Assembly: GCA_000004695.1 (NCBI GenBank)
Contig: CM000155.2
Location: 320,001-384,000 of the forward strand
DNA length: 64,000 nucleotides
Origin: Dictyostelium discoideum
Taxonomy: Eukaryota
Reading direction: 5' to 3'
This document shows positions 13,292 through 43,863 of this stretch, piece after piece (positions within the stretch are counted from its first letter, which is position 1; every line of letters begins with the position of its first letter). The notes under the pieces were generated by a model. The model was not told where the DNA came from. It searched no databases and saw only the letters and a program-made list of their open reading frames with translations. A program made the position numbers and the translations under genes.

Positions 13292-16043
13292 TTATTTGTT
13301 TGATGAGAGCAGCACCAACAGAATCAACACAACCAATTGTAATACCTGAAATTGCCCACCTGATAGTTTGGATGATTCACTATTTCCTTCAGCACCGATT
13401 GATGGTGATGGAGATATTGATATTTGAATTTCTTCAATTTTAACATCATAATTATATGATGTTGAGCCTAATTGGAGATATAATACTCCTGATGTTTCAT
13501 TAACAAATGAATTTGAATGGCATGATAAACAATCAGTACTATTTGTAATATCGATTTCATTTGAACTTAATATTGGATTACTATCATAAAATGTTTCATT
13601 TGGTGATAAACTACATTGTAAATTACATAAAAGAGAAACATTTTGTGATGAAAGTGCCAAGCTTGCATGAATATTACCTGATAAACCAACACCACCCACT
13701 GTTATTGAAATACCTTCTTTTTTATTTTTAATGGTTGGAACAACTGTAATCTTTGGTTTAAAATATGTTAAGAATGCATTTGGTCCTAAATTATCTCCAA
13801 TGAATGTTGAAACAAGTAGTGGACTCTCTATACTATCAGTTCTGACTATTAACATCTTTTCATCATGAGTAATAATCGTGGTATTTTTATTATTTGCTAA
13901 TACTTTAACTTTGAATTCATCTTCATTTGTTAATAAATTCTTACCAGAAACTGTGATTGTACCTCCACAACCAATTGTTTTATTATCTATATTTATTATA
14001 CCATTAATAACAGGTGGAAATGTTAAACTAAATAATGATTCCATATTAATTCCATCTACAGTAATATCAATTGGACCATAATCATATGAATTCAATGTTT
14101 TAATTGTTAATTGATTATCTTTTAATGCTAAAATTTCTGATGAAATATCATTACCATCGAAATAGACTTGAATTAATGGTATTGAGTTACCGAAATTATT
14201 TCCATGAAATGTAATATTAAATTGATCTTTAGAAAATTTACGATGCTCGATTATTGGAGGAGCATATGAGTATCCATCACTAACTGTCTCTGAGTTTAAT
14301 TTGAATATGAATTGTTTATTTAAACCAGTACCATATGGTGTTGAACATTTTGTTTTATAGTAACCAGATGTTAATGATTGTGATGATGGTATTGAACATT
14401 GGGTGGCTGATGATGAATTACCAATAGTAATACTTGGTGTTGATGATGAAATTAATGGACAATCCATATAATATATTTCAATATTTAATGTTCCATTAGA
14501 TACATTTGGTCTATTAATTACATTAATAATTAATGATGCAGAAATTGAAATTGTATTTGAGGAAATATTAGAACGAGTAAAACTAATATTAAAAGATCTA
14601 CATCTTAAATGAGGTAATTTAAATGTTAAACTCTTTTCATCAGATGTAACATTTAATTGGTCAATTTTTAAATAACTATTAGTTCCATCAGCATACAATT
14701 GAACGAATGATTCTTTATTTTTACCAAAATTTGTACCAATTAATGTAACGAAACCATTTGAATATGATCCACTTGATAATGTTGGAATATTATATGTAAA
14801 TGATACATTATTATTACTTGTTGAATTGCAACCTCCGAAATTAACGTTAACTGGTAAATCTCTACCACCATATTCATTTGGATCTAATTGACATTCTAAT
14901 TCGTTTGTTGTTGATTTAATTAATGTACATTGTTTATTTCCAATTGTAATTGAGGGTTTCAATGATGGATATAAAGTCGAAGATAATTTAACACCTTTAA
15001 TTGTTACAATACCTCCTAAATAATTTGATACTGATGATATTGATGTTATTATTGCTGGAAAACAATGAGTAAAATCCTTTTGAAGAGTAATTTTATTTAC
15101 CTTAATATTAATAGACATTGGACCAAGATCAGGTCTACTAAAGTTATTCACTTGAATTTGTGTATGATTTACTGAAATTATAAAATTTGTTTGATTAATA
15201 CCTCCCAGAAAAACCTCTACCAACTTTTTATCTGTAAAGAAGTTATCACCATTAATTGTTAATATCCCTAATGATTCGTCTGAAACAGTACTTGATATTT
15301 TAGGTGATTTGTATGAAAATGGAATAGGAAAATCACCTTCATCTTCAAAGTTAATTTCAAAATTTCCAGAACCTGGTGGAAATGATACAGTGATATTATT
15401 ACAGTCAAAAGAAGGATCAGAGAAATTACCTTTAACAACAAAAGAAACACCATTTCCATAGTTACTTTTAATAAAATTAGGACCTCCCCTGAATCTTAAA
15501 TAATTACCAGTAAATACTACATCACCTCCAGACGTTGCCGGTTTTTTATTAAACTTGATATCACTTACAAATTGAAATGTATATCCAGTACCAGAAAATT
15601 TATCTATATCTGTAAGATTAAATGAACAATTTTCAACTGGATTTGATAGTTCTTTTGCACATACCTTACTATGAGCACTACCCCATAATCTTGAGAATGG
15701 TTCATCTGAATGGAATGTACAAAGTCTCATACTACCAACAACGACACTACAATTGAAATAATTTGGTGCCATTTCATATCTGGGTGTTGTTTCGTTTTGA
15801 TACATAATTAAACGGGTAGGGTAAGAACGATCGCTTGGATAATTAAAATAATGTATTGTAAATGATTTTTCACTAATTGTTGCAACTAATTAAAATAAAT
15901 TAATTTCATAAACAAATTAATTATCAATAATTAAAAATATAATGATACTTACTATATGCCATTGGATCTTCCATTGAATATGGATATCCTAATTTAAAAA
16001 TTGAGAATAAAAAAAAAACTAGTAATATTATTTTATTTTCCAT
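13292..16043 (-). CDS. secreted IPT/TIG-repeat surface protein with GPI-type hydrophobic C-terminus; join(15953..16043,13292..15885)
   Basis: Exon 1 is [30 protein letters not shown] plus 1 nt, with donor A|GTAAGT. The 67-nt intron ends aattAG. Exon 2 of 2594 nt (phase 1) contains the 837-aa ORF. IPT-like units such as [24 protein letters not shown] and [10 protein letters not shown]...[17 protein letters not shown] are present. The C-terminus is ...[16 protein letters not shown]. Confidence 0.65.
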
Positions 16044-18917: not shown

Positions 18918-21906
<2,989 letters not shown>

Positions 21907-22599: not shown

Positions 22600-23712
22600 A
22601 AAAAAACCAATAATCTAAAATGAATCCATAAAAAGAAATATAAATTTTATTTTATTTATAATTATATTCTCAACGATTTAAATCATTTAATTATTTTATT
22701 ACTTTCGTTTAGGCGCTTTTTTTCCCTGCAGTCAGGAAAAAATAATTTAAAATTTCCCTACAACAGAAATTACAATTTTAAATGGAGACCAACTAACCCG
22801 TACTGAAATTTATTATGAATTACCAATAAAATCAAGTTGTTCAATTGTTTCGAACCAAATGATTAAATGTCTTGGTAATTTTATAAATTATTTAGATTTA
22901 TTTAAAAATGGTAAAATTAAAATACAATTTTCAATATGATTATAATTGATAATATCATAAACCAGTGGAGTTGAAAACAAGAGATTGGTTTACAAATTTA
23001 ATCGATGGAGTTATATCAATTTTAAAATCTGGAGAAGTTACATCACAAACAATTAGATATATATAACTTGAACTGGCTTCATTGAGAATGAAAATGGATC
23101 ACTCATAAAAATAATTGGATTGTGATGAATTATTAATTAATGGTGAAAATTTTAATGAAAATACAATTTACAATACATCTGTATATTGCTTTTCAAAAAA
23201 ACAAGTTTATAATTGTTCATTTATAAACTATACATCTATCTCATGTGATATTGAATTGGTAGGTCCATTCGATCAACTTTGTAAAATCAAATTTAATGGG
23301 TAAAGATGAGAATTATAATATTTCAATATCATATTATCCTCCATTAGTTTTAAATTCAACAAAGATTTCGAATTCATCGATTAGTGGAATTATTACAATT
23401 TTTGGTAATGAATTTTATAATCAAATTGATTTAATTACAGTTGGTAAAAGTAAATGTTTAAACTCTACATTTATAAATTCAACATCGATTTCATGTTTTG
23501 TAGAACCTTCAAATTTTATTATTAATCAAACTGAACAACAACAACAACAATATGTTAACATTACAATTAATAGCAAAAGTGGTGGTAATAATTTAATAAT
23601 TTATTCTGGTAATTCAAATAGAATTGATGAAAATAATAAATCAAATAAAAATACAATTGATGATAAACAAACCAACAATGAAATCAAAAATGAATCCATA
23701 AAAGAAATATAA
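22600..23712 (+). pseudogene. decayed edge copy of the tgr-like array: orphan 3' tail (22600..22690), junction, then a C-terminal gene fragment (22741..23712) with internal inversion and frameshifts
   Basis: 22619..22690 matches the last ~70 nt of the array genes ([20 protein letters not shown]). A GC-rich junction ggcgctttttttccctgcagtcagg follows. 22790 onward matches [18 protein letters not shown]... Then 22960..23120 is the reverse complement of the neighbouring coding block (it matches the antisense [15 protein letters not shown] ORFs of the other copies). The distal end reads in frame only with an extra g at aatggGtaaagatg and a 1-nt loss before the tail. There is no upstream signal exon. 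Confidence 0.7.
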
Positions 23713-24608
23713 ATTTAATTTTATTTATAATTATATTCTCAACGATTTTAATCATTTAATTAAATTTATTACTTTCGTTATAAAAAAAATTAAACTCACA
23801 CCAAAAACAATGATTTAGTATATATAAAAATGATTATTTTTAGTGGTTTTGTGTCAAATAAAAAAAAATAATAATACAATAATAAATTTTGAACATGTTG
23901 TTTTTTTTTTTTAATTTTTTTTTTTTTAATTATTTTTATAATAATTATTTTTTTGTTTTTACTATTTGATAAGTGTGTTATTGTGAATTTTGATAATTAA
24001 AATAATATATAAAAATCAAAAATAATTAAAAATATTACCACTTCTCATAAACTACTTTTTATGGTAGTGGTTGAAAAAAAAAAAAAATAATAATAATTTT
24101 AATTTCAATTAAAAAAAACAAGCCCAAAAAAGTTTAATACAATAAATAGTATTCTAATATGATGAAAGAAACATCAAGTGGTGGGTGGTAAACTTGGCAC
24201 ACAGTGTTAAAAAAAAACAATATGAGTAATATTGAAAATCATACAACAAAACTGATAATATTAAAAGAAATTAGTGGGATGTGTGTGTTGAAAAACATTT
24301 TTCAATAAATTATGTGATTGTTTATTTTTAATTTAATATTGAAGCATTACCTTATTGTTTTTATTATTATTTTTATTATTATTATTTTTTTTTTTTTTTT
24401 TTTTTATTATCAATATTTTTGTTTTTTTTAATTATTATTAATATTTATGTTTTTTTTTAATTATTAATATTTTTGTTTTTAAAAAATTTTTATAATTATT
24501 ATTTTTATTTTTAAATAATTTTTTTTCCAACCCAAACCCGTAATATTAAATTTTTTTCCCTTTTCAAAAAAACAATTTCATTATTAAAATAATAAATAGT
24601 AAATCAAA

Positions 24609-24768
24609 ATGAAATTTTTTATATTATTTTTTATTTTATATTTAGTTTCTGATACATTAGGACATTTAAATGAACCAGTTGTCAAGAGTAAATATTTAAT
24701 ATAAAAATAATTTAATCTTTTTTTTTATATTGTTTTTTCCGGTTTGGGTTTTTTTTTTTTTCCAAATT

Positions 24769-24833
<65 letters not shown>

Positions 24834-24955
24834 TTTGGTTATTGTTATTTACTATTTTTAATTTTTTTTAATGTGTTAATATTTAACTAGTTAAAAAAAT
24901 ACAAATATTCAATTTTGTAACCACTTGTCAATATAATTAAAGAAATTTGCAATTG

Positions 24956-25018
<63 letters not shown>

Positions 25019-27624
25019 AGTTTAAAATTAATATCTATAAATATTAATATTAATAAATATTAATCATTTAATAGATACATTCTCTATATTTTTGTATTTT
25101 TTTAAAAAGAAATCGATGGTTTCCAACACTAATTTTTTCTAATGATTTTATTTTAATTTCAGATTTTACATACACAAAACAATCATTGGAATATACATAT
25201 GATATTGATAGTACATATTATATAAAATGGATTTTTTCAAATTTGGAATATGAATTGGTTTTTGAATGTAAAAATAATAGCAAAGAAAGAACATGTACTG
25301 CTGGTATGTCCATTGATATTGCTAAAAATTTACATGGTCAAATAAAGGTATGCATACGTGGAATTGATAATAATGGTGTATTAGATTGCCATATTGCTTT
25401 TTATGAAGAATATTTTCCAAAGCCAATTATTGAAGGTGACTTTAAACCATCTACCAAAGGTGGTCCTACTATTATGAAAGGTTATTATTTGGCAATTGGT
25501 GCATACTACTATACCATTATCCCTGATACTAGATTGGGTATAATAGGTGATATTTTTAGTAACTCTATTGATGTCACAAATTTAATACTAGACTATAAAG
25601 GTGGTTGTGGCCCAGGAACTATTCAATGGTCAAATGATTTTAAATATAGTTTCAATCATTCAAATCCAATCATTGAAAATATTTTTATTGAAGGTTCATC
25701 TTTTATATCAAAAGGTTCTAATTTTTGTAATTCTTCTGATTCAATTCAAATTTATTTAGATGGTGTTCAAATTGATAAATCAAAAATAAAATCAATTGAT
25801 CATGAGCAATTTGAAATAATTTACACTCAACTATATTCAAAATCAATCAATGTTAAAATAGTATCTGGTGGACTTGAATCGAATATTTACAAATTGGATT
25901 TTAAACCGATACCTTTAAAAATTAATAGTGTTCCAAGATTAAAAGGTGGTTCAGTTACAATAATTGGTGAAAGACTATCTCCACAAGTATATAATTCAAC
26001 AATCATTGTTAAAATTGGTCAATATGATTGTAAAAATGTAATCTCATCAAAAAATGAAATTCTCTGTAATTTAGAATCGGTTCAAAATGTTGAAAAGGTT
26101 AAATTGGTAGATTTACAAGTTAATATCTCAATAAATGGTATTTTTAATGAAAATAATTTATTATTCTCATTCGATGTACCAATAATGTCAGATTTTATAC
26201 TTCCTCAAGGTGAAGTTAAATTAGTTGGTGATTGTTTTGGTTCTTCACAATTGACTCAAGTTAAAATTGACGATGTGTTACAATCCAATATAACAATTAA
26301 TATTAATGAAAAAGAAACAACACTTTCATTTAAGCCAATTAAACCAATTAAAAAATCAAAGTTATATATAATTGTCAATGGTACAAAATCAAATACTATT
26401 GAAATTGATTCATCATTTTTTGTAAAAAGTGTTCCATCTTCACCTTCAGTAAATGGTCAAATTGTAAACTTTACACTTTTCAATATAAATCCAAATAATG
26501 TAAATGCAACACCAATTATGATTTTTCAAAATAATAGTTCAATAAATGCAATTGATTATAAAAATTCAAATGAATACTCAACTCACACATACTCCTTTGA
26601 TATTCCAAAAAGTTGTGGGAGAAATGAGATTACAATTTTAATTGGAGACCAACTAACCCGTACTGAAATTTATTATGAATTACCAATAATATCAAGTTGT
26701 TCAATTGTTCCAAATCAAATGATTAAATGTCTTGGTAATTTTTTAAATTATCTAGATTTATTTAAAAATGGTAAAATTAAAATACAATTTTCAAATATGG
26801 TAATAATTGATAATATTCCAAACAATTCAATTATTTTTATGAGTGATTCATTTTCATTCCCAATGAAGCCAGAGTATAGTTCAAGTGATATATATCTTAT
26901 TGTTTGTGATGAAACTTCTCCATATTTTAAAGTTGATATAACTCCATCGCTTAAATTTGTGAGCCAATCTCTTGTTTTCAACTCCACTGGTGGTGAATTA
27001 TTAATTAATGGTGAAAATTTTAATGAAAATACAATTTACAATACATCTGTATATTGCTTTTCAAATAAACAAGTTTATAATTGTTCATTTATAAACAATA
27101 CATCTATCTCATGTGATATTGAATTGGTAGGTCCATTCGATCAACTTTGTAAAATCAAATTTAATGGTAAAGATGAGAATTATAACATTTCAATATCATA
27201 TTATCCTCCATTAGTTTTAAATTCAACAACGATTTCGAATTCATCGATTGGTGGAATTATTATAATTTTTGGTAATGAATTTTATAATCAAATTGATTCA
27301 ATTACAGTTGGTAAAAGTAAATGTTTAAACTCTACATTTATAAATTCAACATCGATTTCATGTTTTGTAGAACCTTCAAATTTTATTATTAATCAAACTG
27401 AACAACAACAACAATATGTTAACATTACAATTAATAACAAAAGTGGTGGTAATAATTTAATAATTTATTCTGTTAATTCAAATAGAATTGATGAAAATAA
27501 TAAATCAAATAAAAATACAATTGATGATAAACAAACCAACAATGAAATCAAAAATGAATCCATAAAAAGAAATATAAATTTAATTTTATTTATAATTATA
27601 TTCTCAACGATTTTAATCATTTAA
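24609..27624 (+). CDS. tgr-like IPT/TIG-repeat surface protein, array copy 1 (GPI-type tail); join(24609..24687,25163..27624), about 846 aa
   Basis: Exon 1 is [26 protein letters not shown] plus 1 nt, with donor A|GTAAAT. The 475-nt intron contains a 66-nt poly-T and ends ttttaatttcAG. Exon 2 (phase 1) runs ...[20 protein letters not shown]... through repeated IPT-like units ([12 protein letters not shown]...[19 protein letters not shown]; [53 protein letters not shown]; [44 protein letters not shown]). It ends in the hydrophobic tail [16 protein letters not shown] then TAA. Confidence 0.6.
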
Positions 27625-27868
27625 TTAAATTTATTACTTTCGTTATAAAAAAAAATTATACTCCCACCAAAAACAATGATTGAGTATATATAAAAAATGA
27701 TTATTTTTAGTGGTTTTGTGTTAAATAAAAAAAAAAAAATACAATAATAAATTTTGAACATGTTGTTTTTTTTTTTTTATATTTTTTTTTTTTTCTAATT
27801 ATTTTTAAAATAATTTTATTTTTTTTTTTTATTGGTTTTACTGTTTGGGTTATTTTTAATCTCAAATT

Positions 27869-27922
<54 letters not shown>

Positions 27923-28444
27923 TTTGATTATTGTTGTTATTTACTATTTTTAATTTTTTAATATTAAAGTCTCCAAATATTCAGCTATTGTTTATTTTTT
28001 ATATCATTGTTAATGTCATTAATAACTATAACTAGTTATTAATATAAATAAATATCAATCATTTTGTAGATATATTATCTATTTATGTATTTTATAAAAG
28101 ATATTGATAATTTCCAACACCAATTTTTAATTTTTTTATTTGGTTCATTAATATTTTTTTAAAAATTTTTCAATGTTTTAACCAGTTGTCAATGTAATTA
28201 AAGATATTTGCAATTGTTTATTAAAAAAAAAAAAAAAAATTGTTTGTTATTTTTTTAAAAAAAAAAAAAAAAGAGCTACTGTTCATTTTTTAATAAATTA
28301 ATTTTAAATTAATATCTATAACTATTAATATTAATAAATATTAATCATTTATTAGATACATTATCTCTATTTTTTGTATTTTTTTTAAAAAGAAATCAAT
28401 AGTTTCAACACTAATTTTTTCTTATGATTTTATTTTAATTTTAG

Positions 28445-31400
28445 ATTTTACATGCACAAAACAATCATTGGAATATACATATGATATTGATAGTACATAT
28501 TATATAAAATGGATTTTTTCAAATTTGAAATATGAATTGGTTTTTGAATGTAAAAATAATAGCAAAGAAAGAACATGTACTGCTGGTATGTCCATAGATA
28601 TTGCTAAAAATTTACATGGTCAAATAAAGATGTGCGGAACTGATAATAATGGTGTATTAGATTGCCATATGCGTGTATACGAAGAATATTTTCCAAAGCC
28701 AATTATTGAAGGTGACTTTAAACCATCTACCAAAGGTGGTCCTACTATTATGAAAGGTTATTATTTGGCAGTTGGAGTAATTCCTTACTTTACTATTATC
28801 CCTGGTACTATATTGGGAACAATAGGTGATATTTTTAGTAACTCTATAGATGTCACAAATTTAATACTAGACTATAAAGGTGTTGTGGCCCAAGAACTAT
28901 TCAATGGCCAAATGATTTTAAATATAGTTTCAATCATTCAAATCCAATCATTGAAAATATTTTTATTGAAGGTTCATCTTTTATATCAAAAGGTTCTAAT
29001 TTTTGTAATTCTTCTGATTCAATTCAAATTTATTTAGATGGTGTTCAAATTGATAAATCAAAAATAAAATCAATTGATCATGAGCAATTTGAAATAATTT
29101 ACACTCAACTATATTCAAAATCAATCAATGTTAAAATAGTATCTGGTGGACTTGAATCGAATATTTACAAATTGGATTTTAAACCTATACCTTTAAAAAT
29201 TAATAGTGTTCCAAGATTTAAAGGTGGTTCAATTACAATAATTGGTGAAAGACTATCTTCACAAGTAAATAATTCAACAATCATTGTTAAAATTGGTCAA
29301 TATCATTGTAAAAATGTAATCTCATCAAAAAATGAAATTCTCTGTAATTTAGAATCGGTTCCAAATGTTGAAAAGGTTAAATTGGTAGATTTGCAAGTTA
29401 ATATCTCAATAATGGTATTTTTAATGAAAATAATTTATTATTCTCATTCGATGTACCAATAATATCAGATTTTATACTTCCTCAAGGTGAAGTTAAATTA
29501 GTTGGTGATTGTTTTGGTTCTTCACAATTGACTCAAGTTAAAATTGACGATGTGTTACAATCCAATATAACAATTAATATTAATGAAAAAGAAACAACAC
29601 TTTCATTTAAGCCAATTAAACCAATTAAAAAGTCAAAGTTATATATAATTGTCAATGGTACAAAATCAAATACTATTGAAATTGATTCATCATTTTTTGT
29701 AAAAAGTGTTCCATCTTCACCTTCAGTAAATGGTCAAATAGTAAACTTTACACTTTTCAATATAAATCCAAATAATGTAAATGCAACACCAATTATGATT
29801 TTTCAAGATAATAGTTCAATAAAAGCAATTGATTATAAAAATTCGAATGAATACTCGACTCACACATACTCTTTTGATATTCCAAAAAGTTGTGGGAGAA
29901 ATGAAATTACAATTTTAATTGGAGACCAACTAACCCGTACTGAAATTTATTATGAATTACCAATAATATCAAGTTGTTCAATTGTTTCAAATCAAATGAT
30001 TAAATGTCTTGGTAATTTTACAAATTATTTAGATTTATTTAAAAATGGTAAAATTAAAATACAATTTTCAAATATGATAATAATTGATAATATTCCAAAC
30101 AATCCAATTATTTTTATGAGTGATTCATTTTCATTCCCAATAAAGCCAGAGTATAGTTCAAGTGATATATATCTTATTGTTTGTGATGAAACTTCTCTAG
30201 ATTTTAAAGTTGATATAACTCCATCGCTTAAATTTGTGAGCCAATCTCTTGTTTTCAACTCCACTGGTGGTGAATTATTAATTAATGGTGAAAATTTTAA
30301 TGAAAATACAATTTACAATACATCTGTATATTGCTTTTCAAATAAACAAGTTTATAATTGTTCATTTATAAACAGTACATCTATCTCATGTGATATTGAA
30401 TTGGTAGGTCCATTCGATCAACTTTGTAAAATCAAATTTAATGGAAAAGATGAGAAGTATAACATTTCAATATCATATTATCCTCCATTAGTTTTAAATT
30501 CAACAACGATTTCGAATTCATCAATTGGTGGAATTATTACAATTTTAATTGGAGACCAACTAACCCGTACTGAAATTTATTATGAATTACCAATAATATC
30601 AAGTTGTTCAATTGTTTCAAATCAAATGATTAAATGTCTTGGTAATTTTACAAATTATTTAGATTTATTTAAAAATGGTAAAATTAAAATACAATTTTCA
30701 AATATGGTAATAATTGATAATATTCCAAACAATCCAATTATTTTTATGAGTGATTCATTTTCATTCCCAATGAAACCAGAGTATAGTTCAAGTGATATAT
30801 ATCTTATTGTTTGTGATGAAACTTCTCCATATTTTAAAGTTGATATAACTCCATCGCTTAAATTTGTGAGCCAATCTCTTGTTTTCAACTCCACTGGTGG
30901 TGAATTATTAATTAATGGTGAAAATTTTAATGAAAATACAATTTACAATACATCTGTATATTGCTTTTCAAATAAACAAGTTTATAATTGTTCATTTATA
31001 AACAATACATCTATCTCATGTGATATTGAATTGGTAGGTCCATTCGATCAACTTTGTAAAATCAAATTTAATGGTAAAGATGAGAAGTATAACATTTCAA
31101 TATCATATTATCCTCCATTAGTTTTAAATTCAACAACGATTTCAAATTCATCAATTGGTGGAATTATTACAATTTTTGGTAATGAATTTTATAATCAAAT
31201 TGATTCAATTACAGTTGGTAAAAGTAAATGTTTAAACTCTACATTTATAAATTCAACATCGATTTCATGTTTTGTAGAACCTTCAAATTTTATTATTAAT
31301 CAAACTGAACAACAACAACAATATGTTAACATTAAAATTAATAGCAAAAGTGGTGGTAATAATTTAATAATTTATTCTGGTAATTCAAATAGAATTGATG

Positions 31401-31531
31401 AAAATAATAAATCAAATAAAAATACAATTGATGATAAACAAACCAACAATGAAATCAAAAATGAATCCATAAAAAGAAATATAAATTTAATTTTATTTAT
31501 AATTATATTCTCAACGATTTTAATCATTTAA
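28445..31531 (+). pseudogene. tgr-like array copy 2: lacks the signal exon, has two frameshifts and a 627-bp in-frame internal tandem duplication
   Basis: The coding region is split over ORFs 28468..29037, 29172..29462 and 29528..31531. A g is missing at ~28891 (ggtgttgtggcc versus ggtggttgtggcc in other copies). An a is missing at ~29410 (ctcaataatggt versus ctcaataaatggt). Segment ~29918..30544 ([14 protein letters not shown]...SIGGIITI) is repeated at ~30545..31180, and the copies differ at about 1% of sites. The upstream ATG exon seen in other units is absent: 27790-27840 joins the preceding 3' flank directly to the intron tail ttttactgtttgggtt. Confidence 0.75.
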
Positions 31532-32151
31532 TTTAATTTATTATTTTCGTTATAAAAAAAAAATTAAACTCCTACCAAAAAAAATTATTGAGTATATATA
31601 AAAAATGATTATTTTTAGTGGTTTTGTGTTAAATAAAAAAAAAAAATAATACAATAATAAATTTTGAACATGTTGTTTTTTTTTTTTATAATTTTTTTTT
31701 TTTTTAATTATTTTTAAAATAATTATTTTTTTGTTTTTACTATTTGATAAGTGTGTTATTGTGAATTTGATAATTAAAATAATATATAAAATCAAAAATA
31801 ATTAAAAATATAACCACTTCTCATAAACTACTTTTTATGGTAGTGGGTGAAAAAAAAAAAAATAATAATTTTCATTTCAATTAAAAAAACAAGCCCAAAA
31901 AAGTTTAATACAATTAATAATATTCTAATATGATGAAAGAAACATCAAGTGGTGGGTGTGGTAAACTTGGCACACAGTGTTAAAAAAAAACAATATGAGT
32001 AATATTGAAAATCATACAACAAAACTGATAATATTAAAATAAATTAGTGGGATGTGTGTGTTGAAAAACATTATTTAATAAATTATGTGATTGTTTATTT
32101 TTAATTTAATATTGAAGCATTACCTTATTGTTTTTATTATTATTTTATTAT

Positions 32152-32196
<45 letters not shown>

Positions 32197-32395
32197 TATC
32201 AATATTTTTTTTTTTTTTAATTATTATTAATATTTATGTTTTTTTTTTAATTATTAATATTTTTGTTTTTATATATTATTTTAATTTTTATTTTTTTTTA
32301 TTTTTTTTATTTCAAATCATTAACAGTAATAATAAATTATTTAACATCCTCAAAAAAACAATTTCATAATTAAAATAATAAATAGTAAATCAAAA

Positions 32396-32559
32396 ATGAA
32401 ATTTATTATATTATTTTTTATTTTATATTTAGTTTCTGATACATTAGGATCTTTAAATGAACCAGTTGTCAAGAGTAAATATTTTAAATATAAATATAAT
32501 TTAATTTTTTTTTTTTATTGTTTTTATTGTTTGGGTTATTTTTATTTCTCAAATTTAAT

Positions 32560-32621
<62 letters not shown>

Positions 32622-35592
32622 TTTGAATTATATTTGTTATTTACTATTTTTAATTTTTTAATATTAAAGTCTCCAAATATTCAGCTATTGTTTATTTTTT
32701 ATATCATTGTTAATGTCATTAATAACTATAACTAGTTATTAATATAAATAAAAATCAATCATTTTGTAGATATATTATCTATTTATGTATTTTATAAGAT
32801 ATTGATAATTTCCAACACTAATTTTTAATTTTTTGTTTGGTTCATTATTATTTTTTTAAAAATTGTTCAATGTTTTAACCACTTTTCAATGTAATTAAAG
32901 ATATTTGCAATTGTTTATTAAAAAAAAAAAAAAAAATTGTTTGTTATTTTATTAAAAAAAAAAGAGCTACTGTTCATTTTTTAATAAATTAATTTTAAAT
33001 CAATATCTATAACAATTGATATTAATAAATAATAATCATTTAATAGATACATTATCTATATTTTTTGTAATTTTTTTAAAAAGAAATCAATAGTTTCCAA
33101 CACTAATTTTTTCTTATGATTTTATTTTAATTTCAGATTTTACATGCACAAAACAATCATTGGAATATACATATGATATTGATAGTACATATTATACAAA
33201 ATGGATTTTTTCAGATTTGGAATATGAATTGGTTTTTGAATGTAAAAATAATAGCAAAGAAAGAACATGTACTGCTGGTATGTCCATTGATATTGCTAAA
33301 AATTTACATGGTCAAATAAAGATGTGCGGAACTGATAATAATAGTGTATTAGATTGCCATTCGAATTACGAAGAATATTATCCAAAGCCAATTATTGAAG
33401 GTGACTTTAAACCATCTACCAAAGGTGGTCCTACTATTATGAAAGGTTATTATTTGGCAGTTGGTGCATACTACTATAACATTATCCCTTATACTAGATT
33501 GGGTATTATAGGTGATGTTCATAGTAACTCTATAGATGTCACAAATTTAATACTAGACTATAAAGGTGGTTGTGGCCCAAGAACTATTCAATGGCCAAAT
33601 GATTTTAAATATAGTTTCAATCATTCAAATCCAATCATTGAAAATATTTTTATTGAAGGTTCATCTTTTATATCAAAAGGTTCTAATTTTTGTAATTCTT
33701 CTGATTCAATTCAAATTTATTTAGATGGTGTTCAAATTGATAAATCAAAAATAAAATCAATTGATCATGAGCAGTTTGAAATAATTTACACTCAACTATA
33801 TTCAAAATCAATCAATGTTAAAATAGTATCTGGTGGACTTGAATCGAATATTTACAAATTGGATTTTAAACCTATACCTTTAAAAATTAATAGTGTTCCA
33901 AGATTAAAAGGTGGTTCAATTACAATAATTGGTGAAAGACTATCTTCACAAGTAAATAATTCAACAATCATTGTTAAAATTGGTCAATATGATTGTAAAA
34001 ATGTAATCTCATCAAAAAATGAAATTCTCTGTAATTTAGAATCGGTTCCAAATGTTGAAAAAGTTAAATTGGTAGATTTACAAGTTAATATCTCAATAAA
34101 TGGTATTTTTAATGAAAATAATTTATTATTCTCATTCGATATACCAATAATATCAGATTTTATACTTCCACAAGGTGAAGTTAAATTAGTTGGTGATTGT
34201 TTTGGTTCTTCACAATTGACTCAAGTTAAAATTGACGATGTATTACAATCCAATATAACAATTAATATTAATGAAAAAGAAACAACACTTTCATTTAAGC
34301 CAATTAAACCAATTAAAAAATCAAAGTTATATATAATTGTCAATGGTACAAAATCAAATACTATTGAAATTGATTCATCATTTTTTGTAAAAAGTGTTCC
34401 ATCTTCACCTTCAGTAAATGGTCAAATTGTAAACTTTACTCTTTTCAATATAAATCCAAATAATGTTAATGCAACACCAATTATGATTTTTCAAGATAAT
34501 AGTTCAATAAAAGCAATTGATTATAAAAATTCAAATGAATACTCAACTCACACATACTCTTTTGATATTCCAAAAAGTTGTGGGAGAAATGAAATTACAA
34601 TTTTAATTGGAGACCAACTAACCCGTACTGAAATTTATTATGAATTACCAATAATATCAAGTTGTTCAATTGTTTCAAATCAAATGATTAAATGTCTTGG
34701 TAATTTTTTAAATTATTTAGATTTATTTAAAAATGGTAAAATTAAAATACAATTTTCAAATATGGTAATAATTGATAATATTCCAAACAATCCAATTATT
34801 TTTATGAGTGATTCATTTTCATTCCCAATGAAGCCAGAGTATAGTTCAAGTGATATATATCTTATTGTTTGTGATGAAACTTCTCTAGATTTTAAAGTTG
34901 ATATAACTCCATCGCTTAAATTTGTGAGCCAATCTCTTGTTTTCAACTCCACTGGTGGTGAATTATTAATTAATGGTGAAAACTTAAATGAAAATACAAT
35001 TTACAATACATCTGTATATTGCTTTTCAAATAAACAAGTTTATAATTGTTCATTTATAAACAATACATCTATATCATGTGATATTGAATTGTTAGGTCCA
35101 TTCGATCAACTTTGTAAAATCAAATTTAATAGTAAAGATGAGAATAATAACATTTCAATATCATATTATCCTCCATTAGTTTTAAATTCAACAACGATTT
35201 CAAAATCATCAACTGGTGGAATTATTACTATTTTTGGTAATGAATTTTATAATCAAATTGATTCAATTACAGTTGGTAAAAGTAAATGTTTAAACTCTAC
35301 ATTTATAAATTCAACATCGATTTCATGTTTTGTAGAACCTTCAAATTTTAATATTAACCAAACTGAACAACAAAAAAAACAATATGTTAACATTATAATT
35401 AATGGTAAAAGTGGTGGTAATAATTTAATAATTTATTCTGGTAATTCAAATAGAATTGATGAAAATAACAAATCAAATAAAAATACAATTGACGAAAAAC
35501 AAACCAATAATGAAATCAAAAATGAATCTATTAAAAGAAATATAAATTTTATATTATTTATAATTATATTCTCAACAATTTTAATCATATAA
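32396..35592 (+). CDS. tgr-like IPT/TIG-repeat surface protein, array copy 3 (GPI-type tail); join(32396..32474,33137..35592)
   Basis: Same architecture as copy 1: exon 1 [26 protein letters not shown] plus 1 nt, donor GTAAAT, a 662-nt intron with a ~75-nt poly-T, acceptor tttcAG at 33135-33136, and the 810-aa ORF 33160..35592 in phase. Confidence 0.6.
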
Positions 35593-36397
35593 TTTAATTT
35601 ATTAATTTCATTGTAAAAAAAAAAAAAAATAAAACTCCAACCAAAAACAATTATTGGGTATATATAAAAAATGATTATTTTTGGTGGGTTAAAAATAAAA
35701 TATAATACAATAATAAATTTTGAACTTATTTTTTTTTTTTTATTTTTTGATAATTTTTTTTTTTTTAATTATTTTTAAAATAATTATTTTTTTGTTTTTA
35801 CTATTTGATAAGTGTGATTGTGAATATTAATAATTTAAATAAAATATAAAATTAAAAATGATTAAAAATATAACCACTTATCATAAAATACTTTTTTTGG
35901 CAGTGGTTGAAAAAAAAAAAAAAAATAATAATATTCATTTCAATTAAAAAAAACACATCCAAAAAAGTTTAATAAAAAATAAATAGTATTCTAAAATGAT
36001 GAAAGAAACACCAATTGGTGGGTGTGGTAAACTTGACACAGTGTTTAATAAACATGATGAGTAATATTGAAAATCATACAACAAAACTGATAAAAATAAA
36101 TTAGTGTGGGAGTGTGTGTTGAAAAACATTTTTCAATAAATTATTTGATTGTTTTTTTTTAATTTACTATTGAAGCATCGTTACCTTAATTTTATTATTA
36201 TTATTATTATTATTTTTTTTTTTCTTTAATATTTTTTTTAATTATTATTATAATTTTTATTTTTTTTAATTATTAATATTTTTGTTTTTATATTTTTTTA
36301 ATTATTAATATTTTTTATTTTTTTATTTCAAATCATAAATTATTTAACATCCTCAAAAAAACAATTTTAATATTAAAATAATAATAGTAAATCAACA

Positions 36398-39105
36398 ATG
36401 AAAATTATTATATTTTTTTTTATTTTATATTTATTTTCCGATACATAAGGATCTTTAGTTGTCAAGAGTAAATATATAAATTAAAATAATTTTAATTTTT
36501 TTTAGTTTTCATTATATCTATATGTACAAAATATATATGTGTCTTAGATAATCATTGAATAGATACATTATTTATATTTTGTATTTTTTTAAAAAGAAAT
36601 CAATGGTTTCCAACTCTAATTTTTTCTAATATTTACATTTTAATTTCAGATTTTACATGCACAAAACAATCATTGGAATATACATATGATATCGATAGTA
36701 CATATTATACAAAATGGATTTTTTCAGATTTGGAATATGAATTGGTTTTTGAATGTAAAAATAATAGCAAAGAAAGAACATGTACTGCTGGTATGTCCAT
36801 TGATATTGCTAAAATTTTACATGGTCAAATAAAGAAGTGCGGAACTGATAATAATAGTGTATTAGATTGCCATTTGAAATACGAAGAATATTATCCAAAG
36901 CCAATTATTGAAGGTGACTTTAAACCATCTACCAAAGGTGGTCCTACTATTATGAAAGGTTATTATTTGGCAGTTGGTGCATACTACTATAACATTATCC
37001 CTTATACTAGATTGGGTATTATAGGTGATGTTCATTGTAACTCTATAGATGTCACAAATTTAATACTAGACTATAAAGGTGGTTGTGGCCCAAGAACTAT
37101 TCAATGGCCAAATGATTTTAAATATAGTTTCAATCATTCAAATCCAATCATTGAAAATATTTTTATTGAAGGTTCATCTTTTATATCAAAAGGTTCTAAT
37201 TTTTGTAATTCTTCTGATTCAATTCAAATTTATTTAGATGGTGTTCAAATTGATAAATCAAAAATAAAATCAATTGATCATGAGCAGTTTGAAATAATTT
37301 ACACTCAACTATATTCAAAATCAATCAATGTTAAAATAGTATCTGGTGGACTTGAATCGAATATTTACAAATTGGATTTTAAACCTATACCTTTAAAAAT
37401 TAATAGTGTTCCAAGATTAAAAGGTGGTTCAATTACAATAATTGGTGAAAGACTATCTTCACAAGTAAATAATTCAACAATCATTGTTAAAATTGGTCAA
37501 TATCATTGTAAAAAGGTAATCTCATCAAAAAATGAAATTCTATGTAATTTAGAATCGGTTCCAAATGTTGAAAAAGTTAAATTGGTAGATTTACAAGTTA
37601 ATATCTCAATAAATGGTATTTTTAATGAAAATAATTTATTATTCTCATTCGATATACCAATAATATCAGATTTTATACTTCCACAAGGTGAAGTTAAATT
37701 AGTTGGTGATTGTTTTGGTTCTTCACAATTAACTCAAGTTAAAATTGACGATGTGTTACAATCTAATATAACAATTAATATTAATGAAAAAGAAACAACA
37801 CTTTCATTTAAGCCAATTAAACCAATTAAAAAATCAAAGTTATATATAATTGTCAATGGTACAAAATCAAATACTATTGAAATTGATTCATCATTTTTTG
37901 TAAAAAGTGTTCCATCTTCACCTTCAGTAAATGGTCAAATTGTAAACTTTACTCTTTTCAATATAAATCCAAATAATGTTAATGAAACACCAATTATGAT
38001 TTTTCAAGATAATAGTTCAATAAATGCAATTGATTATAAAAATTCAAATGAAAACTCGACTCACACATACTCTTTTGATATTCCAAAAAGTTGTGGGAGA
38101 AATGAAATTACAATTTTAATTGGAGACCAACTAACCCGTACTGAAATTTATTATGAATTACCAATAATATCAAGTTGTTCAATTGTTTCAAATCAAATGA
38201 TTAAATGTCTTGGTAATTTTTTAAATTATCTAGATTTATTTAAAAATGGTAAAATTAAAATACAATTTTCAAATATGGTAATAATTGATAATATTCCAAA
38301 CAATCCAAATATTTTTATGAGTGATTCATTTTCATTCCCAATGAAGCCAGAGTATAGTTCAAGTGATATATATCTTATTGTTTGTGATGAAACTTCTCCA
38401 GATTTTAAAGTTGATATAACTCCATCGCTTAAATTTGTGAGCCAATCTCTTGTTTTCAACTCCACTGGTGGTGAATTATTAATTAATGGTGAAAATTTTA
38501 ATGAAAATACAATTTACAATACATCTGTATATTGCTTTTCAAATAAACAAGTTTATAATTGTTCATTTATAAACAATACATCTATCTCATGTGATATTGA
38601 ATTGGTAGGTCCATTCGATCAACTTTGTAAAATCAAATTTAATGGTAAAGATGAGAATTATAACATTTCAATATCATATTATCCTCCATTAGTTTTAAAT
38701 TCAACAACGATTTCGAATTCATCGATTGGTGGAATTATTATAATTTTTGGTAATGAATTTTATAATCAAATTGATTCAATTACAGTTGGTAAAAGTAAAT
38801 GTTTAAACTCTACATTTATAAATTCAACATCGATTTCATGTTTTGTAGAACCTTCAAATTTTATTATTAATCAAACTGAACAACAACAACAACAATATGT
38901 TAACATTACAATTAATAACAAAAGTGGTGGTAATAATTTAATAATTTATTCTGGTAATTCAAATAGAATTGATGAAAATAATAAATCAAATAAAAATACA
39001 ATTGATGATAAACAAACCAACAATGAAATCAAAAATGAATCCATAAAAAGAAATATAAATTTAATTTTATTTATAATTATATTCTCAACGATTTTAATCA
39101 TTTAA
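36398..39105 (+). CDS. tgr-like array copy 4: exon 2 (36650..39105) is intact but the signal-peptide exon at 36398 carries an in-frame TAA and a 9-nt deletion; possibly a pseudogene
   Basis: Exon 2 (810-aa ORF 36673..39105) is full length. The homologous exon 1 reads atgaaaattattatattttttttt..ttttccgatacaTAAggatctttagttgtcaagag, against ..gatacaTTAggatctttaaatgaaccagttgtcaagag in copies 3 and 5. The intron is reduced to ~170 nt, compared with ~660 nt in the other units. Confidence 0.5.
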
Positions 39106-39943
39106 TTAAATTTATTACTTTCGTTATAAAAAAAATTATACTCCCACCAAAAACAATGATTGAATATATATAAAAAATGATTATTTTTAGTGGTTTTGTG
39201 TTAAATAAAAAAAAAAAAAATACAATAATAAATTTTGAACATGTTGTTTTTTTTTTTTTATATTTTTTTTTTTTTCTAATTATTTTTATAATAATTATTT
39301 TTTTGTTTTTGCTATTTGATAAGTGTGTTATTGTGAATTTTGATAATTAAAATAATATATAAAATCAAAAATAATTAAAAATATAACCACTTCTCATAAA
39401 CTACTTTTTATGGTAGTGGGTGAAAAAAAAAAAAATAATAATTTTCATTTCAATTAAAAAAAACAAGCCTAAAAAATTTTAATACAATTAATAGTTTTCT
39501 AATATGATGAAAGAAACATCAAGTGGTGGGTGTGGTAAACTTGGCACACAGTGTTAAAAAAAAACAATATGAGTAATTTTGAAAATCATACAACAAAACT
39601 GATAATATTAAAATAAATTAGTGGGATGTGTGTGTTGAAAAACATTATTTAATAAATTATGTGATTTGTTTATTTTAATTTAATATTGAAGCATTACCTT
39701 ATTGTTTTTATTATTATTTTTTTTTTTTTTTTTTTTTTTTTTTATTATTATCAATATTTTTTTTTTTTAATTATTATTAATATTTATGTTTTTTTAATTA
39801 TTAATATTTTTGTTTTTATATATTATTTTAATTATTATTTTTTTATTATTTTTTTTATTTCAAATCATTTACAGTAATAATAAATTATTTAACATCCTCA
39901 AAAAAACAATTTCATTATTAAAATAATAAATAGTAAACCAAAA

Positions 39944-40105
39944 ATGAAATATATTATATTATTTTTTATTTTATATTTAGTTTCTGATACATTAGGATCT
40001 TTAAATGAACCAGTTGTCAAGAGTAAATATTTTAAATATAAAAATAATTTTATTTTTTTTTTTTTATTGTTTTTACTGTTTGGGTTATTTTTATATCTCA
40101 AATTT

Positions 40106-40151
<46 letters not shown>

Positions 40152-43100
40152 TTTGATTATTGTTGTTATTTACTATTTTTAATTTTTTAATATTAAAGTC
40201 TCCAAATATTCAGCTATTGTTTATTTTTTTATATCATTGTTAATGTCATTAATAACTATAACTAGTTATTAATATAAATAAATATCAATCATTTTGTAGA
40301 TATATTATCTATTTATGTATTTTATAAAAGATATTGATAATTTCCAACACCAATTTTTAATTTTTTTATTTGGTTCATTAATATTTTTTTAAAAAATTTT
40401 CAATGTTTTAACCACTTGTCAATGTAATTAAAGATATTTGCAATTGTTTATTAAAAAAAAAAAAAAAAAAAAAATTGTTTGTTATTTTTTTAAAAAAAAA
40501 AAAAAAGAGCTACTGTTCATTTTTTAATAAATTAATTTTAAATTAATATCTATAACTATTAATATTAATAAATATTAATCATTTATTAGATACATTATCT
40601 CTATTTTTTGTATTTTTTTAAAAAGAAATCAATGGTTTCCAACACTAATTTTTTCTTATGATTTTATTTTAATTTTAGATTTTACATGCACAAAACAATC
40701 ATTGGAATATACATATGATATTGATAGTACATATTATTCAAAATGGATTTTTTCAAATTTGAAATATGAATTGGTTTTTGAATGTAAAAATAATAGCAAA
40801 GAAAGAACATGTACTGCTGGTATGTCCATTGATATTGCTAAAAATTTACATGGTCAAATAAAGATGTGCAGAACTGATAATAATGGTGTATTAGATTGCC
40901 ATTCGAATTACGAAGAATATTTTCCAAAGCCAATTATTGAAGGTGACTTTAAACCATCTACCAAAGGTGGTCCTACTATTATGAAAGGTTATTATTTGGC
41001 AGTTGGAGTAATTCCTTACTTTACTATTATCCCTGATACTATATTGGGAACAATAGGTGATATTTTTAGTAACTCTATAGATGTCACAAATTTAATACTA
41101 GACTATAAAGGTGGTTGTGGCCCAAGAACTATTCAATGGCCAAATGATTTTAAATATAGTTTCAATCATTCAAATCCAATCATTGAAAATATTTTGATAG
41201 AAGGTTCATCTTTTATATCAAAAGGTTCTAATTTTTGTAATTCTTCTGATTCAATTCAAATTTATTTAGATGGTGTTCAAATTGATAAATCAAAAATAAA
41301 ATCAATTGATCATGAACAATTTGAAATAATTTACACTCAACTATATTCAAAATCAATAAATGTTAAAATAGTATCTGGTGGACTTGAATCGAATATTTAC
41401 AAATTGGATCTTAAACCTATACCTTTAAAAATTAATAGTGTTCCAAGATTAAAAGGTGGTTCAATTACAATAATTGGTGAAAGACTATCTTCACAAGTAA
41501 ATAATTCAACAATCATTGTTAAAATTGGTCAATATGATTGTAAAAATGTAATCTCATCAAAAAATGAAATTCTCTGTAATTTAGAATCGGTTCCAAATGT
41601 TGAAAAGGTTAAATTGGTAGATTTACAAGTTAATATCTCAATAAATGGTATTTTTAATGAAAATAATTTATTATTCTCATTCGATATACCAATAATATCA
41701 GATTTTATACTTCCTCAAGGTGAAGTTAAATTAGTTGGTGATTGTTTTGGTTCTTCACAATTGACTCAAGTTAAAATTGACGATGTGTTACAATCCAATA
41801 TAACAATTAATATTAATGAAAAAGAAACAACACTTTCATTTAAGCCAATTAAACCAATTAAAAAATCAAAGTTATATGTAATTGTCAATGGTACAAAATC
41901 AAATACTATTGAAATTGATTCATCATTTTTTGTAAAAAGTGTTCCATCTTCACCTTCAGTAAATGGTCAAATTGTAAACTTTACACTTTTCAATATAAAT
42001 CCAAATAATGTTAATGCAACACCAATTATGATTTTTCAAGATAATAGTTCAATAAAAGCAATTGATTATAAAAATTCAAATGAATACTCAACTCACACAT
42101 ACTCTTTTGATATTCCAAAAAGTTGTGGGAGAAATGAAATTACAATTTTAATTGGAGACCAACTAACCCGTACTGAAATTTATTATGAATTACCAATAAT
42201 ATCAAGTTGTTCAATTGTTTCAAATCAAATGATTAAATGTCTTGGTAATTTTATAAATTATCTAGATTTATTTAAAAATGGTAAAATTAAAATACAATTT
42301 TCAAATATGGTAATAATTGATAATGTTCCAAACAATCCAATTATTTTTATGAGTGATTCATTTTCATTCCCAATGAAGCCAGAGTATAGTTCAAGTGATA
42401 TATATCTTATTGTTTGTAATGAAATTTCTCCAGATTTTAAAGTTGATATAACTCCATCGCTTAAATTTGTGAGCCAATCTCTTGTTTTCAACTCCACTGG
42501 TGGTGAATTATTAATTAATGGTGAAAATTTTAATGAAAATACAATTTACAATACATCTGTATATTGCTTTTCAAATAAACAAGTTTATAATTGTTCATTT
42601 ATAAACTATACATCTATCTCATGTGATATTGAATTGGTAGGTCCATTCGATCAACTTTGTAAAATCAAATTTAATGGAAAAGATGAGGAGTATAACATTT
42701 CAATATCATATTATCCTCCATTAGTTTTAAATTCAACAACGATTTCGAATTCATCAATTGGTGGAATTATTACAATTTTTGGTAATGAATTTTATAATCA
42801 AATTGATTCAATTACAGTTGGTAAAAGTAAATGTTTAAACTCTACATTTATTAACTCAACATCAGTTTCATGTTTTTTAGAACCTTCCAAAATTATTATT
42901 GATCAAAGCAAACAACAACAGCAACAACAACAACAACAACAACAATATGTTAACATCACGATTAATGGTAAAAGTGGTGGTAATAATTTAATTATTTATT
43001 TTGATAATTCAATTATTGAAGTTAAAAACCAATCAAGCCAAAGTGATAAAAACAACAACAACAACAACAACAACAATGGTAAAAATATAAATAATGGTGA

Positions 43101-43863
43101 TAGTAAAACTGATGGTAGAAGTTTTTATGAAAAAAATAAAAAATGGATAACAGTATTAATAATAATTGGAAGTTTGGCATTACTTTTATTTATCTTTTTT
43201 GGTATAATTTATTGTAATAGAAAAAACGGTACTGTTATCTATTGGAAATATATTATGTGTCGCGGAATCAAAGAAAAAAAATATAAATTTAAAAATAGAA
43301 AAGAGATAAAACAAATACAAGAATTAAGACATACATTGGATAATGCAGAGACAATTTTTGCTGACTTTGAATTAGATAATATAATAACTTATTCAGAGTA
43401 TCAACTTACACCCGAAAATCGTCTACGAAAAGAACAACAAGAATTAGCTCGAGAAAATTATATTGAAACTTACCCAGATTATTATTTACATATAAATAAA
43501 ACTAAAAATTTACCAAATAATGATTCATTACCTCCAAATCAAGTTGAAAATTTACCAAATAATAATTCATTACCTCCAAATAAAATTGAAAATTCATTAC
43601 CTCCGAATCAAACTGAAAATTTACCAAATAATAATTCATTACCTCCAAATCAAACTGAAACATTACAAGAAGATTCTTTACCTCCAAATCAAACTGAAAC
43701 ATTACCAGAAGTTTCATTACCTCCAAATCATATTGAAACATTACCAGAAGTTTCATTACCTCCAAATCAAATTGAAACATTACCAGAAGTTTCATTACCT
43801 CCAAATCATATTGAAAAACTAACAGACAATTCATCATCATCTCAAGACCCAAGCTCTTCATAA
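39944..43863 (+). CDS. tgr-like IPT/TIG-repeat protein, array copy 5, with a transmembrane helix and a repetitive cytoplasmic tail; join(39944..40022,40679..43863)
   Basis: Exon 1 is [26 protein letters not shown] plus 1 nt, the intron is 656 nt, and the 1053-aa ORF begins at 40702. It is identical in layout to the other copies up to ~42850, then diverges: Q12 tract, N-rich linker, TM helix [23 protein letters not shown], basic stretch [17 protein letters not shown], and 8 tandem 11-12-aa units SLPPNQ(T/I)E(N/T)LP(N/E)(N/V). Confidence 0.65.

Follow-up and report, generated by a model that had tools for sequence, protein, structure and literature searches.

A 64,000-nucleotide (nt) stretch of chromosome 6 of Dictyostelium discoideum AX4 (GCA_000004695.1, contig CM000155.2, positions 320,001 to 384,000; hereafter the window), with approximately 20% G+C and long homopolymer runs, carries in tandem five genes of the Tgr ("tiger") family of cell-surface proteins, all on the + strand and with no divergent partner between the copies. 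Outside three short patches near the N-terminus the five copies are ~98% (98-99%) identical to each other and ~90% identical to other arrays, whereas the patches are hypervariable. The reading we favour, which we hold to be probable though far from certain, is that of a tgrA array homogenized by exchange between its members, in which one hairpin of the encoded protein is under diversifying selection, a second region is represented by alternative cassettes, and recombination reshuffles the two. The array is built around the following long open reading frames (ORFs).

25186-27624, + strand: long ORF of copy 1
28468-31531, + strand: long ORF of copy 2
33160-35592, + strand: long ORF of copy 3
36673-39105, + strand: long ORF of copy 4
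40702-43863, + strand: long ORF of copy 5

Each long ORF represents exon 2 of a two-exon gene. The five second exons were aligned with MAFFT, which gave 2,247 columns common to the copies. Altogether 136 columns are variable, and 45 of these are concentrated in only 138 columns (binomial p = 2.4e-21). The densest run of 70 columns contains 23 variable ones, a value reached in 0 of 5,000 permutations. Per 60 nt there are 18-21 variable columns in the patches and ~2-3 in the background, and the 87 nt separating patch 1 from patch 2 (columns 246-332) contain one variable site. The localized hypervariability among near-identical copies that had been reported in the initial annotation of this DNA is therefore borne out, both by the clustering and by the presence of the same alleles in a long-read assembly (see below), and the substitutions are anything but uniformly spread. 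Its coordinates and peptide strings also agree overall with the five-exon alignment, except that AVG in copy 1 in fact reads AIG. Both of the variable sites that it described are real, but a third patch, located 25-45 nt further upstream (25348-25365 in copy 1), had been overlooked. The patches, named here patch 0, patch 1 and patch 2, are located as follows.

25348-25365, + strand: patch 0 of copy 1 (K-V-C-IRGID, with a 6-nt insertion), columns 186-203, strand E60-65, first strand of the predicted hairpin
25391-25417, + strand: patch 1 of copy 1 (H-IAF-YEEYF, with a 3-nt length difference), columns 229-255, strand E74-78, second strand of the predicted hairpin and linker to domain 2
25495-25559, + strand: patch 2 of copy 1, columns 333-400, predicted loop-hairpin-loop in the first Ig_TgrO1 domain (Pfam, ORF residues 85-158)
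28630-28641, 28667-28693 and 28771-28838, + strand: patches 0, 1 and 2 of copy 2
33322-33333, 33359-33382 and 33460-33524, + strand: patches 0, 1 and 2 of copy 3
36835-36846, 36872-36895 and 36973-37037, + strand: patches 0, 1 and 2 of copy 4
40864-40875, 40901-40924 and 41002-41069, + strand: patches 0, 1 and 2 of copy 5

Patch 0 reads KVC-IRGID in copy 1 and KMC-GTD, KKC-GTD or KMC-RTD in the others, with an indel of 6 nt. In patch 1, DCH-IAF-YEE of copy 1 (25384-25410) is replaced by MRV in copy 2, SN in copies 3 and 5 and LK in copy 4. This patch had been described as different in every copy, but there are four alleles in five copies, as copies 3 and 5 are identical there (TCGAAT). Patch 2 forms two haplotypes, AYYY..TRLGII in copies 1, 3 and 4 versus VIPYF..TILGTI in copies 2 and 5, exactly the division proposed earlier for the second segment. 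Each of the patches includes an indel (6, 3 and 3 nt, respectively), and all of the indels are in frame. An origin of the patches by a frameshift and a compensating frameshift was considered, and inspection of the nucleotide alignment gave it no support. In the hairpin loop a GGT to AGT change (Gly to Ser; 33340-33348 and 36853-36861) generates an N-N-S glycosylation sequon that is confined to copies 3 and 4.

The copies are not related by a single tree. Among the informative sites (n = 41) the partitions {3,4} and {2,5} account for 13 each, and {1,2}, {2,4}, {1,4}, {2,3} and {3,5} also occur. Incompatibility affects 41% of the informative site pairs, the pairwise homoplasy index (PHI) test gives p = 0.004 (w = 100), and the Hudson-Kaplan minimum number of recombination events (Rm) is at least 13. 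A GENECONV-like permutation test identifies a tract of 30 consecutive variable sites, 27018-27400, over which copies 1 and 4 do not differ (p < 2e-4), and a tract common to copies 2 and 4 at 27264-27400 (p = 0.001). Towards its 5' end copy 4 is therefore similar to copy 3, and towards its 3' end to copy 1. Also the {1,2} sites (columns 61, 231 and 238) alternate with {2,5} sites (columns 84 and 338-382), which requires exchange or repeated mutation. Distance-clustered incompatibility and significant tracts, by which concerted evolution is recognized, are thus both present, and the gene conversion or recombination among copies that had been proposed earlier is supported by the PHI, Rm and tract tests alike.

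The informative sites of patch 2 fit the single tree ((3,4),(2,5),1), while the backbone is scrambled. In patch 1 four site partitions are found within 9 nt, a pattern that indicates repeated hits. The mosaic nature of copy 5, which combines SN in patch 1 with the patch-2 haplotype of copy 2, had been put forward as an example of recombination. The combination is real, but this example alone does not require recombination, because on the tree ((3,4),(2,5),1) SN can be ancestral and LK and MRV derived.

AlphaFold2 models were obtained for the N-terminal 345 residues of copy 1 and 344 residues of copy 5 (predicted local distance difference test score, pLDDT, 89.3 and 89.8; predicted template modeling score, pTM, 0.79 and 0.78, respectively). 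Both models are strings of immunoglobulin (Ig)-like domains, and their Foldseek matches are plexin and MET IPT-domain chains. The models assign patches 0 and 1 to the last hairpin of domain 1 (E60-65 and E74-78 in copy 1, E60-65 and E71-74 in copy 5), where pLDDT is locally lowered (68-73 in the copy 1 model) and where each strand carries a near-invariant cysteine (Cys63 and Cys75). Patch 2 consists of a short hairpin (E115-118 and E122-126) with a loop on either side, and the first Ig_TgrO1 domain, in which it resides, corresponds to domain 2. Strand topology alone would allow all three patches to lie close to where domains 1 and 2 meet, and they are presumably solvent-exposed.

The same positions vary beyond the AX4 array. 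When 32 family proteins from several Dictyostelium species are compared, the positions of highest entropy are model residues 59-64, 69-83 and 124-134, that is, the same patches, and Cys63, Cys75 and the adjoining framework are nearly invariant. When the arrays of the wild strains FIR (L003, L007 and L008) and FIW (L004) are taken together with the AX4 singleton P0003 (L005), the mutual identity of the backbone is 94-98% (96-98% for the FIR and FIW arrays alone), compared to 73-92% for the hairpin and 77-100% for patch 2. Two hairpin classes (VWA...NNFL and VFG...RMNV) and two patch-2 classes (VFSYY and L[H/Y]FY) occur there in all four combinations. In contrast, patch-0 and patch-1 alleles are mostly linked, with one recombinant (FIR_b), which fits their being two strands of one hairpin. 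The FIR and FIW arrays are ~90% identical to the AX4 copies in the backbone and are found at rearranged loci, with 2 to 4 copies in each wild-strain locus. No wild-strain protein is at least 90% identical to an AX4 copy, and clusters at this threshold hold AX4-identical sequences only. A search for a syntenic wild-strain locus via the flanking 533-residue gene retrieved only an AX4-like assembly, and the DNA synteny between the FIR locus L008 and the window is partial and inverted, at 82% identity. In the first copy of another FIR locus (L007, ~6928-6937) the frame is broken inside patch 1, and the tblastn match is split between residues 72 and 75.

Selection was assessed in two ways. By Nei-Gojobori pairwise estimates pooled over pairs, pN/pS is 0.33 in the backbone (pS 0.041) and 0.91 in the patches (pS 0.152). 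In addition, the ratio of nonsynonymous (N) to synonymous (S) change per site, omega, was calculated from codon counts on minimum spanning trees. The samples were the five copies of the AX4 array, seven copies from the FIR and FIW arrays and the AX4 P0003 locus, all 12 and all 15.

Hairpin (patches 0 and 1): omega 1.6 in the AX4 array (16 N : 2 S, p = 0.4), 4.3 in the seven copies (37 N : 2 S, p = 0.014), 2.2 in all 12 (p = 0.027), 1.9 in all 15 (p = 0.10)
Patch 2: omega 0.87 in the AX4 array, 0.57 in the seven copies, 0.75 in all 12, 0.70 in all 15
Rest of the gene: omega 0.40 in the AX4 array, 0.30 in the seven copies, 0.36 in all 12, 0.36 in all 15

In sliding windows omega peaks at 2.3-4.7 at ORF residues 56-75. 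The elevated dN/dS anticipated at the patches is thus found only in part. Their N:S ratio is indeed raised relative to the rest of the gene (p = 0.03 in the AX4 array and p = 2e-5 in the paralogous arrays), but within the window omega above 1 in the hairpin is not significant, and omega in patch 2 is below 1. The synonymous divergence (dS) between the patch-2 haplotypes, 0.28-0.38 versus ~0.04 in the rest of the gene, is 7-9 times the background, so that amino acid diversification alone is insufficient to explain this patch and old or replaced cassettes are indicated. It also exceeds, for most pairs, the divergence of the adjacent intron and 3' flank, which is ~3-13% for most pairs and up to 28% for the rearranged region upstream of copy 4. 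On these counts the hairpin signal of diversifying selection appears credible but not conclusive, and patch 2 seems better described as a few old or replaced cassettes in near-neutral evolution than as a case of plain positive selection. The earlier interpretation, gene conversion combined with localized diversification at a putative recognition surface, is in this sense partly supported, and none of the outcomes named beforehand as contradicting it was observed.

The favoured reading can be put as follows. Unequal crossing-over and gene conversion would hold ~95% of each 2.4-kb exon at 98-99% identity, and the three short segments would act like complementarity-determining regions between conserved framework segments. 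The hairpin, which in the models sits at the end of the N-terminal, membrane-distal Ig-like domain, would accumulate replacements and in-frame indels faster than synonymous changes, as might be expected from diversifying selection on a binding determinant. Patch 2 would exist as few deeply diverged cassettes, either spared from homogenization or replaced wholesale, and recombination in the conserved frameworks would deal hairpin and patch-2 alleles into new combinations. We infer that binding specificity resides in the patches and that their variation is driven by selection and not by mutation or relaxed constraint.

Several points weigh against this reading. The omega values come from simple counting and not from a recombination-aware likelihood model, and in the hairpin the excess over 1 is not significant in the window (p = 0.4) and marginal in the pooled samples (p = 0.03-0.10). 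Synonymous change is raised in the patches as well (0.23 versus 0.105 S per site, Fisher p = 0.07), an effect not expected from amino acid selection. Distinct in-frame alleles are found even in the two copies that are pseudogenes. Expression of many tgrAHIO genes in clonal development is reported to be weak, and no function is known for the clade (PMC12745789). Also no donor of the VIPYF cassette was found in three protein searches covering ~50 family proteins, or in the fetched loci. The protein search with the N-terminal 190 residues returned just the old copy-2 gene model and two fragments, and exact DNA searches of the fetched loci for the VIPYF cassette and the copy-1 insertion gave no donor either.

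Some of these points would be accommodated if the patches were weakly constrained loops at the edges of which mismatch-triggered heteroduplex rejection stops conversion, so that the flanks are homogenized and the patches retain the true age of the duplicates in the absence of diversifying selection. Omega of the two patches combined is indeed close to 1 (1.09, AX4 array), dS is raised to the extent given above, the clean patch-2 tree stands out from the scrambled backbone, and the pseudogene copies hold alleles of their own. Such neutral islands should not, however, display a hairpin omega of 4.3 (p = 0.014) in independent arrays, nor 2-5.5 replacement versus at most 0.5 synonymous differences per pair in the hairpin of copies 2-5. 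Furthermore, the two patch-2 haplotypes diverge by 22-24%, for most pairs more than the intron and 3' flank, although non-coding regions are expected to be at least as old, and the indels are all in frame next to near-invariant cysteines and framework. This explanation is considered unlikely.

A local mutational hot spot, in which slippage or error-prone repair in AT-rich DNA produces N and S changes regardless of function, would account for the indel beside clustered substitutions in each patch and for the enrichment of synonymous changes. Hypermutability has been invoked for the tgrBC locus, but there it is structural (duplication and recombination) and not point-mutational (PMC12745789). 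The neighboring sequence is as AT-rich as the patches and yet nearly invariant (columns 246-332), only in-frame indels are observed, and the same codons vary in species-level relatives while the adjoining Cys, Pro and Gly framework residues are near-invariant. We hold a hot spot to be highly unlikely.

Alternatively, the VIPYF haplotype and the copy-1 hairpin may each be the product of a single ectopic gene conversion event from a more distant tgr paralog, instead of having evolved within the array. In favor of such an import, 10 of the 13 sites uniting copies 2 and 5 lie within 45 nt, synonymous sites are among the interhaplotype differences, and an analogous two-haplotype block of tgrB2 has been read as imported variation (bioRxiv 10.1101/2025.10.22.684067). 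In addition, the hairpin motif H-M-R-V-Y-E-E of copy 2 resembles the R-M-H/N-V-Y-E/Q-E class in the arrays of another strain. The prospect is nevertheless slim, as neither the ~50 family proteins from public genomes nor the fetched loci contain a donor, and the VIPYF haplotype is the most divergent from all other sampled arrays (66-75% identity). Finally, an artefact of assembly or sequencing in a collapsed repeat array is rejected as next to impossible, since the independent long-read assembly GCA_054883475.1, although it has 8 copies instead of the 5 found here, reproduces all patch alleles base for base and agrees with the window over the N-terminal sequence of each copy, including the first frameshift of copy 2, and the patch alleles are therefore real.

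In GCA_054883475.1 (L001/L002/L006, compared with 25061-39310 of the window) the copy order is 1, 2, 3, 4, 2', 3', 4', 5, and the extra 11.4-kb unit is 99.64% identical to the first one (18 mismatches). Either the repeat is collapsed in the AX4 reference or the other laboratory strain has undergone a very recent segmental duplication.

The array as a whole is made up of a single full-length gene, a pair of intact short genes, two pseudogenes and a fragment. Exon 1 is located 182-662 nt upstream of copies 1, 3, 4 and 5, and in copies 1, 3 and 5 it encodes an MK(F/Y)(F/I)... start that is signal-peptide-like by inspection. These three copies are 100% identical to the AX4 proteins XP_635221.1, XP_635224.1 and XP_635226.2, respectively. 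The individual elements are listed below.

22612-23960, + strand: partial 3' fragment of an additional copy of the array, located before copy 1 (blastn, 94-96% identity to 26626-26816 and 26990-27829)
24609-24687, + strand: exon 1 of copy 1, signal-peptide-like, followed by a 475-nt intron; the gene model is exactly that of P0007 (XP_635221.1, UniRef100_Q54EL9)
25163-27624, + strand: exon 2 of copy 1, short form with a hydrophobic tail end
28445-31531, + strand: copy 2, a pseudogene with no exon 1, with frameshifts and a duplication
32396-32474, + strand: exon 1 of copy 3, in agreement with P0005
33137-35592, + strand: exon 2 of copy 3, short form
36398-36467, + strand: exon 1 remnant of copy 4, with an in-frame TAA and a 9-nt deletion
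36650-39105, + strand: exon 2 of copy 4, open frame
39944-40022, + strand: exon 1 of copy 5, in agreement with P0001
40679-43863, + strand: exon 2 of copy 5, long form, 100% identical to P0001 (XP_635226.2, Q54EL4)

Besides lacking exon 1, copy 2 is missing 1 nt after 28881 and another after 29410, and ~630 nt are duplicated internally, in tandem and in frame (roughly 29906-31170). Its frame is open once both deletions are repaired. Copy 4 is classified as a pseudogene because of the in-frame TAA in its exon 1, and in the public annotation (P0006) it is given an alternative N-terminus without a signal peptide. The introns (24688-25162, 32475-33136 and 40023-40678) are 475-662 nt in length, which is long for Dictyostelium, and they hold T and A homopolymer runs of at least 50 nt, for example at ~24770-24832 and 24966-25017. 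An extra upstream module is common to copies 2, 3 and 5 and is not found in copies 1 and 4.

The copies also differ in their 3' ends (27406-27624 in copy 1 versus 42916-43863 in copy 5). Copies 1-4 share a short form in which a short polar stretch and a hydrophobic end are followed by no tail, and this C-terminus might, by inspection, be a glycosylphosphatidylinositol (GPI)-anchor signal. Copy 5 is the sole long form, with a hydrophobic stretch that is transmembrane (TM)-like by inspection and a 240-residue repeat-rich cytoplasmic tail carrying tandem SLPPNQxETLPE-like repeats. In the wild-strain locus L004, as in the AX4 array, a long copy comes after a short-type copy, and short copies followed by one long copy may be a general arrangement. 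It is tempting to regard copies 1-4, tail-less and in part pseudogenes, together with the fragment as a store of hairpin and patch-2 cassettes, which would be converted into the full-length, signaling-competent copy 5 to give new specificities in one step. TgrA proteins would then make up a second, so far unrecognized polymorphic cell-cell recognition system in Dictyostelium, in which the three patches would give one composite surface where domains 1 and 2 meet. We offer this as a speculation that is doubtful at best.

Upstream of the array, at 18918-21906, there is an ankyrin and protein kinase gene. It has a FIR counterpart (L008, 213-5271) that adjoins a two-copy Tgr array, is 82% identical and is inverted, which suggests either local rearrangement or paralogy. 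The only other tgr-like gene in the vicinity, a distant family member with Ig_TgrO1 and TIG domains and 26% identity to copy 1, is located on the minus strand at 13295-15805, ~9 kb upstream and beyond the kinase gene.

Assignment of the array to the Tgr family is based on domain content and homology. Ig_TgrO1 and TIG domains are recognized by Pfam in copies 1 and 5 (E = 4e-33 and 3e-31 for Ig_TgrO1, E = 1e-10 and 2e-11 for TIG, respectively). The ectodomain accordingly carries the IPT/TIG or Ig E-set repeats expected of Tgr proteins, as do the models with their resemblance to plexin and MET IPT domains, and the array shows homology to named tgr genes within a Dictyostelium genome. A profile search from the array proteins also picks up DDB_G0289561, which is tgrT1 (PMC12745789). 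In one study of the tgr genes an unpaired same-strand array is described solely for the tgrA cluster (bioRxiv 10.1101/2025.10.22.684067). The five copies are unpaired and all on the + strand, and on this basis the array is most likely the tgrA cluster, as far as gene arrangement can tell.

Similarly to TgrB1 and TgrC1, the allorecognition pair of D. discoideum, the array proteins combine a putative signal peptide with a chain of Ig-like and IPT/TIG domains, and copy 5 also with a putative TM segment and a tail. The highly polymorphic N-terminus of TgrB1/TgrC1 has been implicated in partner-specific binding strength (PMC5288501), and in tgrB1 dN/dS is most extreme near the gene start (bioRxiv 10.1101/2025.10.22.684067). 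Variation is likewise concentrated near the N-terminus in the array, and in both cases the genes are recombination mosaics, with 12 recombination sites detected by GARD in tgrB1 and 10 in tgrC1 (PMC12745789). However, tgrB1 and tgrC1 form a head-to-head pair with a common promoter, whereas all copies of the array are co-oriented and unpaired. The variants there are population alleles, as opposed to paralogs of one genome here, and the tgrA subfamily is not known to have a binding partner, a role in development or strong expression. TgrB1, TgrC1 and TgrB2 were too distant to be reached by either single-sequence or profile searches from the array proteins.

A further parallel is tgrB2, in which a sharply bounded, extremely divergent two-haplotype block near base 300 with homogeneous flanks has been read as imported or converted (bioRxiv 10.1101/2025.10.22.684067). 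The hairpin of the array corresponds to approximately nt 256-333 of the coding sequence and patch 2 to approximately nt 410-475, but the haplotypes of tgrB2 are alleles among strains and those reported here belong to paralogous copies in one array. The tgrA genes are part of the rapidly duplicating tgrAHIO clade, and genes of the tgrA type are reported to show prolific duplication, moves to new loci and many fragments and pseudogenes; duplicates and pseudogenes have been proposed as a source of fragments (PMC12745789). The same dynamics are seen here in the 5 versus 8 copies, the 2 to 4 copies per wild locus, the two pseudogenes and the fragment. In the parts of that study available to us, in turn, neither a framework-and-hypervariable-patch design nor gene conversion within tgrA arrays is described (PMC12745789).

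Since the head-to-head B/C pairing is absent, the array is filed as a Tgr family member (tgrA cluster) and not as an allorecognition locus, and by analogy its proteins plausibly work like TgrB and TgrC, with a putative role in recognition. Outside the amoebae, the Ig V genes of chicken, diversified by gene conversion, and the Alr loci of Hydractinia offer examples of hypervariable Ig-like loops between frameworks with pseudogene donors. Here, too, short hypervariable loops are set between frameworks, and segments could pass between tandem functional and pseudogene copies. To judge from the data, however, the exchange in the array is evolutionary (germline), with no sign of somatic or programmed conversion or of a dedicated enzyme.

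No new kind of system is revealed by these results. Hypervariability and recombination mosaics are already known in tgrB and tgrC, and what is added is the same design in another subfamily and between paralogs. For the residues that set Tgr binding specificity, the array represents a compact natural experiment. Its near-identical proteins differ almost only in a hairpin of ~25 residues and a loop region of ~25 residues, both of which vary across strains and species, and concrete segments can thereby be nominated for swap experiments. More broadly, the findings suggest that frameworks with hypervariable loops, reshuffled by gene conversion, are characteristic of Tgr proteins in general and are not confined to tgrB and tgrC.

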